Notes: generated by a model from the sequence alone, not told the origin. Counted from the stretch's first letter, positions 60,425-63,803 are shown. The stretch is 64,000 bases of DNA from Bradymonadales bacterium (GCA_016931535.1 JAFGEP010000110.1:12459-76458), one strand, 5' to 3'. Program-made: numbers and translations.

Positions 60425-61054
60425 GGGCATTTGCGCCTGCCGCCAGAGAGCCATCACCGTCCGGACCAGGGGATGGTCGCGCCAGCCGGCGGTGGAAGCG
60501 GGTCTGGGGGGCACCCACGGTCGTCTTGAAGAGGGTCGTTCTTCCCAGGCATCGGCGATGCTCAGGACCAGGGTGCGGTCCTCTCCGTACAACACCAGCT
60601 CGGGCCGGCCCCCCAGCCATCTGCGGCCCGTCCGGGCCTCGATCTCCTGGATGGAAGACCAGCTCATCGTCACCCTTCGGCCGAGCAGACCGAAGGGGAA
60701 CCGCGCCTTTCTCGTCAACTCCAGTCCGTCCGGGTCGAGCTGGAGGTGGATTCCGGAGCGATAGTACAGGTAGAAGGCGCCGTAGAGCCCCAGGATGAGA
60801 GCCAGCAGCACGGTCATTCCGGCCAGCAGGCGGATATTGGGGTAGAGCGAGAAGAGGTCTGACAGGCTGAGGTTCCAGGCCACAGCCCGCCTGCGAACGC
60901 CGAGCAGGGTGATGACCGCCAACGCGGGCCCTGCCATCATGCCGGCCAGGATGACCACCCGCTCGGCGGGGAAGCAGGCGAAGGAAAAGACGGTTGGCGG
61001 TGTCAAGGCCGCCAACCGTTCAGGGTTCGAGCAGCAGCGCCAGGAGCTCATCAC
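60347..61054 (-). CDS. Hypothetical membrane protein (bacterial PH-like)
   Basis: TM segments followed by LQLDPDGLEL...WSSIQEI. Start uncertain. Confidence 0.55.
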   Translation of the reverse strand: MMSSWRCCSNPERLAALTPPTVFSFACFPAERVVILAGMMAGPALAVITLLGVRRRAVAWNLSLSDLFSLYPNIRLLAGMTVLLALILGLYGAFYLYYRSGIHLQLDPDGLELTRKARFPFGLLGRRVTMSWSSIQEIEARTGRRWLGGRPELVLYGEDRTLVLSIADAWEERPSSRRPWVPPRPASTAGWRDHPLVRTVMALWRQAQMPSEKQAEEVPVQPHSSHDEGGERLVE

Positions 61055-62441
61055 AGCTGTGCTCCCCGGGAAACAGGACGGACTGGATCTCGGGCGCGCT
61101 CATCACCCGGATCCAGGTGGTCATGTGTTGAACGAACAGGTCGGTCGGCCCGTTTACCAGGGTGTCAACGGGGCATGACCAGCGGGCCGCCATCACCCCC
61201 ATGCACAGGACCACGACCCCTGCCCTCACGCTGCCGAAGACCATGGTTCCGCGGGAGAACAGGTGGTTTCTGAGCGAGAAGAGGACGAACTGCAGGCTTT
61301 TTGGGGGGATGTCGTTCCAGGGAGCAAGAACCTGGCGGTCCAGGGAGCCGACCTGGAGTACCAGGCTTCTCAGGTTGCTTCCGAATCGGCTCAAGGGCCG
61401 ATCGTCCTCGGTATCGAAGCAGCTTGCCAGGACCTCCTGCAGCAGCTCGGCCACCCGCTGTCCGAATCGGGCCTGTGCCGGCGGGCTGGGCAGGCGCGCT
61501 TCGAGCGGTGCGGTGGGAGGTGAGGGGCCATCCGGGTGGGGGGCTGGTTGATGGGGAGCCCTCAACACCCGGTCCGCCAGGGCACCCATCACCGAGGCCA
61601 GGCTCAGATCCTCCGCTTGGAGCAGGGCGAGGAGAGCCTGCTCGTGGTCCAGGTTCTCCAGGAAGGTGGCGGTGGGAACCAGCGACTCCGAGTGGTTGGG
61701 GTCGAGCCCCTGGATCAGCGCTGGCGGGCGCCAAACCCCCCACTGCTGCATCAGCTCTTGGGGTGTGATGACGGCTGCCTCCTGGTAGCTGCGATGGGCC
61801 AGGTAGCAGCGGGGGGAGAGGGTGAGGCGGGTGCCGCTTTCCGTGCGGATCATCCGCAGGGGGAACATCCGGCAGGGCAACGGCTTGCTATGGGGTCCCC
61901 AGCGTTGATGAAGGCGGCAGAGCCGGTCGGGGGAGAGGAAGATACAGGCTCCGCCGGGGAAGTTGAGCACCCGCTGGCCTTTCCCCTCGTAGCTGACCTC
62001 CACCGTGGCCGGACCCTCGGGAATATCGGGGTGGTCGACTCTTAGCTGGTCGATCTGTTGGTCCAGCTTTTCCTCCTCTTCCTCGGTGATCGGGCCCACC
62101 AGGTGGCCTTCGCAGGATCGGCCGCAGCGCAGGCAACGATGGCGGATGGGGGCGATGGTGGCAAAGTGGTGCTGTACCTCGGCGATGCCGGCTGCCTCGA
62201 ACAGCCGGACCATCTCGATCATACCTGCGGGGTCGGGCAGCTTGGCGCCCAGCCTCGTGATTGCGCGGTGGATCTCCTGCAGGGTCCTCTTGCCGTCCAT
62301 CAGCAGCAAGACCGGCAGCGTACGGGCCGGAACGATGGAGCCGGCCCCCCGGTGAGAGGGGGTCAGCCGATAACGCAGACCGTCCGGCGCATCGACAGGT
62401 CTGATGGACACGCCGGCCGCGATTCGGGGTATCGCCAGCAT
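61020..62441 (-). CDS. YkgJ/FliB-type Cys-cluster (Fe-S) protein with an N-terminal PqqD/RRE-like domain, paralog 1
   Basis: LLLMDGKRTLQEI; CLRCGRSC; CIFL..LCRLH..KPLPCRMFP; SPRC. Confidence 0.78.
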   Translation of the reverse strand: MLAIPRIAAGVSIRPVDAPDGLRYRLTPSHRGAGSIVPARTLPVLLLMDGKRTLQEIHRAITRLGAKLPDPAGMIEMVRLFEAAGIAEVQHHFATIAPIRHRCLRCGRSCEGHLVGPITEEEEEKLDQQIDQLRVDHPDIPEGPATVEVSYEGKGQRVLNFPGGACIFLSPDRLCRLHQRWGPHSKPLPCRMFPLRMIRTESGTRLTLSPRCYLAHRSYQEAAVITPQELMQQWGVWRPPALIQGLDPNHSESLVPTATFLENLDHEQALLALLQAEDLSLASVMGALADRVLRAPHQPAPHPDGPSPPTAPLEARLPSPPAQARFGQRVAELLQEVLASCFDTEDDRPLSRFGSNLRSLVLQVGSLDRQVLAPWNDIPPKSLQFVLFSLRNHLFSRGTMVFGSVRAGVVVLCMGVMAARWSCPVDTLVNGPTDLFVQHMTTWIRVMSAPEIQSVLFPGEHSCDELLALLLEP

Positions 62442-62444
62442 GGA

Positions 62445-63803
62445 CTACTCTCCCAGAAGGCCTCGGAACACCTGGTAATCGTCGGCGTCATCGAAGAGGA
62501 ACTGGTAGGAACGGGCGACGTTGATCATGCGATACCAGTAGGCCATCCGCCGGCCCAGCTCGTCATGCACCCGGTCGCCATCGGTCCACTCGGGGGTGGT
62601 CCACAGCGCGCCGATGAGGCCGATCAATGCGACCTGGATGCCGGTCTCCACCTGGGGAAAACGGCTGGTCTCGCGCAGGTAGACAAACTGACTCAGGCTG
62701 AACAGGAGGTAGGCGCGGACCGGATCGACCGGCTCGATCCAGGGCGCGGGTGGCTCCGGCAGGCGGGCGAGATCGGCGATGAACCGCCGCACATGCTGTC
62801 CATAGCGGCTGGTCGGCAGATCCAGGGGGCTATGCCGATATCGCTCGGGAAATCGGCGCAGCCGCCTCGAGACCTCGGCCAGGTAGGCTGAGGGTAGCGG
62901 ACGCCCGCTTTGGAGTGTTCCGGTGGAGCTGTTGATGAGATCGGTGAAGGAGAGGCCCTCGATCGCCACCAGCGACAGGAAGTACGACTCCTGCTGCAGG
63001 TTGTTCTCAAATATCGGGGTGGCCCGCAGGGAGCGGACGCGCGAGGGGTCCAGCCCCACGATGGCTCCCGGGGGTCGCCGCACGCCGACCGATTCGAAAA
63101 ACTCGGGCAGAGAGAGCGGCTCGGCCGTCTGGAAGGAGCGATGGGTCATGGTGCACTGGGGCGAGATACCGACCCGAAAGCCGGCCTCGGTCTGCAGGAC
63201 CCGCACGGGAAAGAGCTGGCAGATGAGCGGTTTGGACCGCAGCCCGTAGTGGCGGTGGACGGCGCAGAGCCTGTCCTTGCCGAAGAAGACGCAGTGACCC
63301 GGGAGGAAGTTGATGGCCAGCACCGGCTCCTGTTCGTCCTGGACCTCCATGGTGGCCAGCCCATCGACCAGGTCGGGCTCCAGCTGCTTGAGCGCCTCCC
63401 GCTGCTCATGGAGCCTTTTCGCCTCGGACAAAGACAGGGGGCCGACCAGGTGCCCTTCGCAGCACTCGCCGCACTCTCCCCCGTAACAGATGTGCCGGAG
63501 CGGCAGGAAGGACTCCACGTGCCATCGCATCGCCACGGCGTTGATCCGCTCCAGAGCCTGGAAGATCAGCAGGACATCGGCGGGGTCTTGCATGGAAAAG
63601 CCGAGATCGACCAGCCTGTCGTAGATGTCGCCCATGGTCCTCCTACCGTCGGCCAGCAGGACCACGACCAGCATCCCGGGGTTGAAGTTGCCGGACAGGC
63701 TGCGAGGGGGCGGCCCGGTGAGGGTATAGGCCAAGGCCCCCGCCTCATCGATCGTCCAGCTCACTGTCGTCCGGCCACGGGGTATCGAAGGTGTAGATTC
63801 CAT
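62445..63803 (-). CDS. YkgJ/FliB-type Cys-cluster (Fe-S) protein with an N-terminal PqqD/RRE-like domain, paralog 2
   Basis: LLADGRRTMGDI; CYGGECGECC; CVFF..LCAVH..KPLICQLFP; SPQC. Confidence 0.8.
   Translation of the reverse strand: MESTPSIPRGRTTVSWTIDEAGALAYTLTGPPPRSLSGNFNPGMLVVVLLADGRRTMGDIYDRLVDLGFSMQDPADVLLIFQALERINAVAMRWHVESFLPLRHICYGGECGECCEGHLVGPLSLSEAKRLHEQREALKQLEPDLVDGLATMEVQDEQEPVLAINFLPGHCVFFGKDRLCAVHRHYGLRSKPLICQLFPVRVLQTEAGFRVGISPQCTMTHRSFQTAEPLSLPEFFESVGVRRPPGAIVGLDPSRVRSLRATPIFENNLQQESYFLSLVAIEGLSFTDLINSSTGTLQSGRPLPSAYLAEVSRRLRRFPERYRHSPLDLPTSRYGQHVRRFIADLARLPEPPAPWIEPVDPVRAYLLFSLSQFVYLRETSRFPQVETGIQVALIGLIGALWTTPEWTDGDRVHDELGRRMAYWYRMINVARSYQFLFDDADDYQVFRGLLGE

Follow-up and report, generated by a model that had tools for sequence, protein, structure and literature searches.

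RRE-type domains fused to FliB-like cysteine-cluster cores in a conserved gene triad of Bradymonadales

What do two neighbouring enzyme-like proteins modify if they carry the docking domain of a peptide-maturation pathway but a catalytic core of another kind? This question is raised by one end of a 64,000-nucleotide stretch of DNA from a Bradymonadales bacterium (GCA_016931535.1 JAFGEP010000110.1:12459-76458; G000:C166:12459-76458 in our numbering), referred to below as the window, which lies on an 89-kb contig that was also read for 12.6 kb past base 64000. An earlier note on this DNA had singled out two genes, here called A and B, whose products join a domain resembling RREs (RiPP recognition elements), leader-binding modules of the pathways for RiPPs, peptides that are made on the ribosome and modified after translation, to a cysteine cluster of the YkgJ/FliB type, and had read them as a RiPP-like modification pair. 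The answer favoured here, which is held tentatively and at somewhat less than an even chance, is that A and B form a membrane-associated complex with the product of a third gene, C, whereby iron-sulfur (Fe-S) enzymes of the FliB type, probably dependent on S-adenosylmethionine (SAM), modify a peptide or protein segment held by the RREs.

Three abutting genes conserved in seven loci

The two genes are co-directional, on the minus strand, with 3 bp between the stop codon of A and the ATG of B, and their products align over the full length (31% identity over ~470 residues; BLASTP E = 3e-66), confirming the tandem of paralogs described in the earlier note; judged from the sequences, the resemblance is one of genuine paralogy and not of chance. 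Each protein has a ~95-residue N-terminal domain, a Cys-rich metal domain of the YkgJ/FliB type and a ~250-residue helical domain, an arrangement suggestive of three-domain metalloenzymes in which an RRE, that is, a PqqD-type winged helix, is fused to a catalytic module of ~375 residues of the FliB/YkgJ/DUF3109 type. Public annotations of such proteins go no further than 'YkgJ family cysteine cluster protein' or 'Fe-S-cluster containing protein'. The genes and domains are as follows, in window positions.

62445-63803, minus strand: gene A, 452 amino acids (aa), ATG start; RRE-like N-terminal domain, Cys-cluster domain and helical domain
63507-63803, minus strand: N-terminal PqqD/RRE-like domain of A, ~99 aa, with the motif LLADGRRTMGDIY...DP (N-domain alignment A5)
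63144-63506, minus strand: Cys-cluster domain of A, YkgJ/FliB type; C-YGGE-C-GE-CC-EGH (CX4CX2CC), then C..F....C..H.......KPL.C..FP
61020-62441, minus strand: gene B, 473 aa, ATG start; three-domain build as in A
62154-62441, minus strand: N-terminal PqqD/RRE-like domain of B, residues 1-96; AlphaFold2 model, Foldseek and profile matches
61797-62153, minus strand: Cys-cluster domain of B; C103-x2-C106-x3-C110-x2-H113, C166, C175, H178, K186-P187, C190, F193-P194, R205, C212
61023-61796, minus strand: C-terminal all-helical domain of B, residues ~216-473, with the invariant R397
60347-61051, minus strand: gene C, membrane protein of ~234 aa with a variable N-terminal tail, two transmembrane helices and a weakly bPH-like cytoplasmic domain

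The open frame of A spans 62445-63866 on the minus strand and has an ATG, in frame, at 63803. It is with this ATG that the ortholog N-termini (MLSTP...) line up, so that 63803 is the right end coordinate for the gene; the TTG at 63866, although in frame, would be an unlikely alternative start.

The earlier reading had seen a pair and had missed C, the third gene, which is conserved in all seven loci described below. The start of C overlaps the 3' end of B by ~32 nucleotides, and its cytoplasmic domain holds a conserved RP...P..GGW..H motif. In Pfam, C has only a sub-threshold match to bPH_6, and a profile of C finds no match in the PDB. With a hidden Markov model of C as the query, the protein turned up next to A-B pairs and nowhere else, and the genome of the window has a single copy.

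The order A-B-C, with the genes abutting or overlapping, occurs in seven independent loci, namely the window, L002, L004, L006, L029, L051 and L053, all of them from Bradymonadales-like genomes or metagenomes (L029 is in G001, an uncultured Bradymonadales metagenome-assembled genome; L052 is identical to L029, and the two are counted once). The tandem form was seen only in the family-level group of the window and in a handful of metagenomic contigs; word-index searches for homologues yielded only ~10 close relatives, to which scans of genomes and metagenomes added few loci. In a maximum-likelihood tree, the A orthologues and the B orthologues of the seven loci form separate clades, each with 100% support in the Shimodaira-Hasegawa-like approximate likelihood ratio test (SH-aLRT). 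Such findings support the view that the A-B pair is a conserved functional unit.

The two clades differ in their first cysteine motif. In B it is invariant across the loci (CxxCG[RQH]SCEGH), whereas in A it is relaxed: the window has CX4CX2CC, L004 and L029 have Ser in place of the second Cys together with a CC doublet, and L051 has Phe in place of His. The difference between the first triads that had been noted earlier is thus real, but it is not peculiar to this copy, since relaxed constraint runs through the whole A lineage. This pattern points to an asymmetric pair in which B would be the canonical subunit and A a diverged one.

Directly after the stop codon of B lies a terminator-like hairpin (60990-61019, minus strand) with an 11-bp stem, including 8 G-C pairs, and a T-rich tail, which sits within the 5' coding region of C. 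The hairpin might be fortuitous, or it might cause C to be expressed less than A and B. At its other end, C is met by a convergent open reading frame (ORF) on the plus strand (59627-60424), which overlaps the 3' end of C, is signal-peptide-like from M54 (MGRCKRTTSSARAVGICGFLTVVLALPAAVRA), ends in ...FRLLF, resembling the C-terminus of an outer-membrane beta-barrel, and has no match in Pfam or NCBIfam. A distant tandem pair is present in L054 (3238-6274; ~29% identity); the tree places it as a duplication independent of the A/B split, and the next ORF, of 193 aa, is no homologue of C.

The N-terminal domain and the cysteine-rich core

The identity of the N-terminal domain was approached with profiles and with predicted structures. 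Two profiles, one of 43 family members and one of the N-domain alone (A5), were compared with 177,635 PDB sequences, and PqqD structures top both searches (5sxy, E = 9e-4 with the 43-member profile and 8.5e-4 with A5; 3g2b is also listed), followed by the RRE-containing PaaA (E = 6e-3) and then by PbtF, with the alignments in register from residue 4. An AlphaFold2 model of B, built on an 18-sequence alignment, reached a predicted local distance difference test score (pLDDT) of 91 and a predicted TM-score (pTM) of 0.89, and the N-domain modelled alone a pLDDT of 88.5. On these models DSSP assigns strands to residues 4-7, 12-18, 21-27 and 35-38 of B, and then helices to residues 39-46, 54-63 and 71-83, which is the winged-helix beta3-alpha3 topology of RREs. 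In a Foldseek search of the PDB, the N-domain retrieves the RRE of TruD (probability 1.00), PqqD (probability 0.99, TM 0.53/0.54) and leader-bound TbiB1 (probability 0.85-0.93, TM up to 0.68). Further matches in this search are ThcOx, TglHI and TbtB, and also a domain in Rv2067c and PKMT1/2, which are protein lysine methyltransferases. The domain is well kept in both clades, with D49-G50, R52 and D70-P71 invariant or nearly so. The RRE/PqqD pattern that had been recognized earlier in the first ~90 residues is therefore borne out by the profile-against-PDB matches and the predicted structure, though the Pfam PqqD model is silent; the methods agree, and the evidence is consistent with an RRE/PqqD-like domain without being overwhelming.

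For the core, membership of the YkgJ/FliB cysteine-cluster superfamily, also proposed in the earlier note, is supported by matches to three families, of which only the CxxCxxCC match of A reaches its cut-off. The Pfam family CxxCxxCC (PF03692, gathering score 23) matches A above its threshold (26.0 bits) and B below it (18.1 bits), and 40 of the 43 relatives at E <= 1. DUF3109 (PF11307, gathering threshold 33.5 bits) gives sub-threshold scores to both A (25.2 bits) and B (12.8 bits), and matches 16 of the 43. The sole NCBIfam match of either protein is FliB (NF038110). The cysteine strings quoted earlier are indeed present, CLRCGRSC in B and CYGGECGECC in A. In the 43-sequence alignment (A1), C103, C110, C166, C175, H178, K186, P187, C190, F193, P194, R205 and R397 are invariant, and C106, G107, G112 and C212 are kept in at least 90% of the sequences. 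The Radical_SAM family (PF04055) has no match in A or B at E <= 1, and the CX3CX2C motif is absent.

A phmmer search of 1.84 billion cluster representatives returned 1,065 relatives at E <= 1e-3, of which 179 also pass E <= 1e-10. Among the best 150, each of them a 50%-identity cluster, about half share the N-domain and are 440-480 aa long, and the others, of 300-400 aa, start at about residue 95 of B. For all ten relatives without the N-domain that were compared with NCBIfam, FliB is the sole match (up to 56 bits, model positions 15-199). Because the short relatives match FliB only, A and B are to be regarded as an RRE domain joined to a FliB-like module and not as FliB equivalogs.

A candidate function and its alternatives

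The chemistry of such a core may be approached through the two characterised relatives, both of which methylate primary amines. FliB carries a [4Fe-4S] cluster on CX4CX3CC and performs SAM-dependent N-methylation of flagellin lysines (PMC8598068), and DpdM, a phage homologue of DUF3109/YkgJ for which two metal sites have been modelled, adds a methyl group to the amine of dPreQ1 in DNA (PMC10516641). Like FliB from Salmonella, the only NCBIfam family that A, B and the shorter relatives match, the core of A and B starts with a Cys-rich metal domain and continues into a helical region, in a module of ~375 aa with no canonical methyltransferase fold; FliB itself acts on a protein and forms oligomers. 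The differences lie in the cluster motif (CX4CX3CC in FliB, PMC8598068, versus CX2CX3C-x2-H in B and CX4CX2CC in A), in scores far short of the FliB cut-off, in the extra RRE domain, the tandem paralogy and the membrane partner of A and B, and in a genome without a flagellin match. With DpdM, A and B share the cysteine-cluster superfamily and two predicted metal sites built from the first motif and later cysteines, but DpdM acts on DNA, has no RRE, and is smaller and monomeric (PMC10516641). A structural tie to DpdM could not be shown, the B model being unmatched among the viral predicted structures of BFVD.

The N-domain is closest to PqqD (5sxy, 3g2b) and to the RREs of TbiB1 (5v1u), TruD (N-domain, 4bs9) and PaaA (5ff5), with which it shares the beta3-alpha3 fold and an 'L.L.DG.rT..eI' motif, and which are its top profile and structural matches. 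It differs from them in falling below the Pfam PqqD threshold, in having no linked precursor gene, and in being fused to a FliB-type core rather than to a radical-SAM, YcaO, LanB or lasso-peptide partner. An N-terminal RRE is also found in radical-SAM/SPASM maturases of RiPPs, such as SuiB and CteB, which follow the logic of PqqE plus PqqD. These have, as A and B would, a peptide-docking RRE ahead of an Fe-S, SAM-using catalytic domain, but their catalytic fold is unrelated, A and B having neither a PF04055 match nor the CX3CX2C TIM-barrel core. A further likeness is to Rv2067c (8hkr) and to PKMT1/2 of Rickettsia (5do0, 5dnk, 5dpl), which have a domain aligning to the N-domain in Foldseek (Rv2067c, probability 1.00, TMq 0.54); it shows that an RRE-like module can occur in enzymes that methylate whole proteins, but it is structural only (10-20% identity), and those enzymes have class I Rossmann cores and no Cys-cluster domain.

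From these comparisons a mechanism may be proposed, in which A and B would be constant partners, be it within one hetero-oligomer or in successive steps, and would work with the dedicated two-helix membrane protein C. In the core, a [4Fe-4S] cluster would be held by C103, C106, C110 and one further ligand (B numbering), and a second metal site, of the Cys3-His or Cys4 type, by C166, C175, C190 and a His; this agrees with what has been demonstrated for FliB and modelled for DpdM. The RREs would take hold of an extended segment of the substrate peptide or protein on the membrane's inner side, where C would anchor the complex, and the core would then carry out a SAM-dependent group transfer, which, by analogy with the two relatives, would most likely be the N-methylation of an amine. 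A dedicated RiPP precursor is an improbable substrate; a cell-envelope protein or peptide is more likely, with C itself a candidate, given that the triad sits in envelope loci of SDR (short-chain dehydrogenase/reductase), glycan or lipid type. It is possible, if rather doubtful, that A/B/C is the founding case of an RRE-guided class with a FliB-type core, in which a membrane-tethered heteromer modifies, and probably N-methylates, a peptide or envelope protein without a precursor gene.

The gene neighbourhood bears directly on the nature of the substrate. Upstream of A, on the same strand, lie two genes that reach beyond the window (a position in L001 is the window position minus 56641).

63863-64000 and continuing beyond, minus strand: 3' end of a PglF/CapD-like membrane-anchored sugar-nucleotide 4,6-dehydratase of 625 aa (L001 7222-9099)
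L001 9283-10422, beyond the window: DegT/LegC-like aminotransferase, upstream of the PglF-like gene

The PglF-like gene ends ~59 bp upstream of A, the aminotransferase scores 376 bits against a LegC-family model with a cut-off of 420, and a divergent NadA gene lies beyond it. The earlier note had supposed that a precursor might lie upstream beyond 64000; these genes were found there instead, and the 12.6 kb contain no short precursor ORF. In the other loci too, what surrounds the triad is not RiPP machinery but genes for extended-SDR enzymes, SRPBCC proteins and glycan assembly. A co-directional extended-SDR gene stands directly upstream of the triad in five of the seven loci, PglF-like in the window and 3beta-HSD/HpnA-like in L002, L004, L029 and L051, and the same slot is taken by an LCM-type methyltransferase in L053, with no SDR in L006. 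SRPBCC lipid-binding proteins adjoin the triad in L002, L004, L052 and L006, and glycan genes are found within a few kb of it in L006, L051 and L052 (Bac_transf, GDP-fucose synthesis, Wzy_C, the UDP-GlcNAc 2-epimerase Epimerase_2, GT4 and Glycos_transf_4). This context suggests the cell envelope rather than a RiPP gene cluster.

Could A and B nonetheless be classical leader-dependent maturases, acting on a short precursor that is encoded elsewhere in the genome and secreted as a natural product? Such a pathway is improbable. Both enzymes do carry an RRE-type domain, and an N-terminal RRE before an Fe-S/SAM enzyme is the usual design of radical-SAM RiPP maturases; in L051, an ABC-transporter ATPase gene and a 549-aa ORF without a Pfam match come after the triad, and an NTP_transf_5 gene, of a family known from lasso-peptide and HPr-rel-A contexts, lies within a few kb of the triad in L004 and L052. 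However, gene calls, tblastn and an all-against-all comparison of intergenic small ORFs revealed no conserved short ORF in or near the triad across the seven independent loci, where the gaps within the operon are only 0-60 bp. The few small ORFs called near triads are each unique to one locus (tblastn was run on two isolated ones), and a leader peptidase, a cyclase and other RiPP hallmarks are likewise missing there. In addition, single-copy relatives with the N-domain are found in unrelated housekeeping contexts, beside ligA, a Ser/Thr kinase gene or PGM; the window genome's third copy (C114), for instance, stands beside ligA in a position that is syntenic in G001. Thus, of the RiPP-like pair that had been proposed, the RRE-like domains, the Cys cores and the conserved pair stand, whereas the precursor and the RiPP machinery do not, and a RiPP-type cluster is not upheld by neighbourhoods in which none of the seven loci holds a precursor-like ORF, an outcome that the earlier note itself had listed as refuting. 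The main rival is the tailoring of a small molecule or glycoconjugate, which we consider rather unlikely; here the pair would modify, for example by N-methylation, an amino sugar, a lipid-linked glycan or a lipid supplied by the co-transcribed SDR, and the N-domain would be vestigial, regulatory or used for docking. The SDR gene of five loci and the nearby SRPBCC and glycan genes would fit such a role, the PglF-like and DegT pair of the window is expected to yield a 4-amino-4,6-dideoxy sugar with a free amine, and DpdM, in the same superfamily, methylates a non-protein amine (PMC10516641). The strong conservation of the N-domain in both clades, on the other hand, speaks against a vestigial domain, and the upstream SDR varies in type or, as in L053 and L006, is not there at all. 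Amino-sugar N-methylation is, to our knowledge, normally the task of class I methyltransferases, which also counts against tailoring of this kind.

Two other roles are less likely than either of these. A and B might be Fe-S redox or metal sensors, that is, cluster-containing transcription regulators in which the winged-helix N-domain binds DNA, a role to which we give very little credence. RREs are derived from winged helix-turn-helix (wHTH) regulators (PMC7470986), and the DUF3109 member Rv0495c has been linked to redox homeostasis (bioRxiv 10.1101/2023.08.22.554105). Yet the best sequence and structure matches of the domain are RREs and PqqD and not DNA-binding regulators, a ~375-aa core with invariant K, R and H and a dedicated membrane partner is unlike a regulator, and both characterised relatives are enzymes. 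More improbable still is a role as DpdM-type accessory enzymes in DNA modification, partnering the neighbouring N6-adenine methyltransferase of the Eco57I/TaqI_C type. DpdM does act on DNA (PMC10516641), and an Eco57I/N6_Mtase gene adjoins the triad in the window (57953-59617), L002, L004, L029 and L053, as well as following a single-copy homologue by 14 bp in L036. This methyltransferase gene is, however, convergent to the triad and lies within a more extensive syntenic block (Mtase-Pkinase-VKOR), and L006 and L051 lack it. Neither A nor B has a match among the defence-system models of PADLOC, and no 7-deazaguanine genes were seen nearby. As a functional partner the methyltransferase was rejected, its proximity being mostly a matter of synteny and the gene missing in two loci.

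Several observations also weigh against the preferred reading of A, B and C as a membrane-associated complex that modifies a peptide or protein. The Pfam PqqD model (PF05402) matches neither A nor B at E <= 1, gives nothing at the A-B locus in a six-frame search of the genome at E <= 10, and matches just one of the 43 relatives (E = 0.02). When the N-domain profile was compared by hhalign with the genome's own bona fide PqqD protein, the register was right but the match was not significant, and the Foldseek E-values of the domain are weak (0.02-1.6) despite the high probabilities. The FliB model scores B at 25.4 and A at 18.3 bits against a cut-off of 85, over model positions ~59-121 of 373, and a Foldseek search with the full-length B model against the PDB and BFVD left the core unmatched and returned local N-domain matches only; since the core has no structural match, the proposed reaction rests on analogy with two distant relatives. 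Co-inheritance is the one observation that suggests an A-B heteromer, and the SDR, SRPBCC and PglF/DegT neighbours would suit a small-molecule substrate equally well.

Distribution, significance and neighbouring elements

Of 41 related genomes, 15 contain relatives at E <= 0.001, and of 151 genomes sampled across the phylum, 25 show a match at E <= 1e-10, in most cases over the core alone. Seven FliB-superfamily genes are present in the genome of the window, including the following.

G000:C18:3622-4794: FliB-superfamily gene
G000:C137:33891-34568: FliB-superfamily gene
G000, contigs C152, C19 and C114: further FliB-superfamily genes

Two FliB-superfamily genes of this genome exceed the cut-off of the NCBIfam FliB model, with 176 and 143 bits and in open frames of 580 and 539 aa. 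Flagellin_N (PF00669) has no match in the genome, whose completeness is 97%, so that these above-cut-off 'FliB' enzymes must act on something other than flagellin.

In the literature searched, no publication was found that links RRE/PqqD domains with YkgJ, FliB or CxxCxxCC proteins, nor was an earlier description of the fusion together with the membrane protein; to go by their domain architecture, A and B may be RRE-guided enzymes whose catalytic partner is new. For the discovery of peptide-modifying pathways, RRE domains offer the main handle that is independent of class, and the FliB-type Fe-S methyltransferases are a scarcely explored enzyme fold with two characterised members. If the proposal is true, the fusion would supply FliB-like chemistry with a defined substrate-docking module that could serve as bait for substrates, and would hint at the role of many FliB-like genes in non-flagellated bacteria. 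It would likewise extend RRE logic from natural-product biosynthesis to general protein modification, make an RRE domain by itself an unreliable flag for a RiPP cluster, and turn the RRE-fused FliB-like proteins, about half of the best 150 clusters, into an unexplored set of such enzymes. No member of the family has had its structure solved, and the high-confidence model and the invariant ligands offer clear targets for mutagenesis.

Directly 3' of C in four relatives (L002, L004, L029 and L006) lies a non-coding element of ~100 nucleotides, at the following positions.

L002 6979-7081: non-coding element
L004 8636-8738: non-coding element
L029 10199-10302 (G001:C27:28738-28841): non-coding element
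L006 12209-12315 and 12332-12434: two tandem copies of the element

The element has an invariant 40-nucleotide core, AGGCT[AG]CGGGCACCTCCGACCACCACCCGA, which is closed by an outer stem, CCCCCGCGGG/CCCGCGGGGG. Its conservation extends to all codon positions, so that it is an RNA or DNA element and not a peptide; it has no Rfam match and occurs once in the 8.7-Mb genome G001. The element, conserved at the nucleotide level, accounts for the sole conserved 'small ORF' signal, which was rejected as a precursor candidate, and it is absent from the window, the rest of the window's genome, L051 and L053.

Single-copy homologues show other arrangements. In L036 (248-4142; G020:C44), the Eco57I/N6_Mtase gene downstream of the homologue is on the same strand and encodes 828 aa, and in L041 (5306-10413; G036:C35) the homologue overlaps the end of a 1266-aa gene on the same strand that groups with Ser/Thr kinases by BLAST. 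In L002, L004 and L053, the Eco57I-type methyltransferase gene adjoins a Ser/Thr kinase gene, with VKOR-DsbA further along the block. In the window, for which positions 34866-38646 and 57391-59617 were compared, the kinase orthologue (36718-38646) and the methyltransferase orthologue (57980-59602) are ~19 kb apart with a Tc/Rhs-like cassette between them, and this broken synteny supports the view that the cassette is an insertion.

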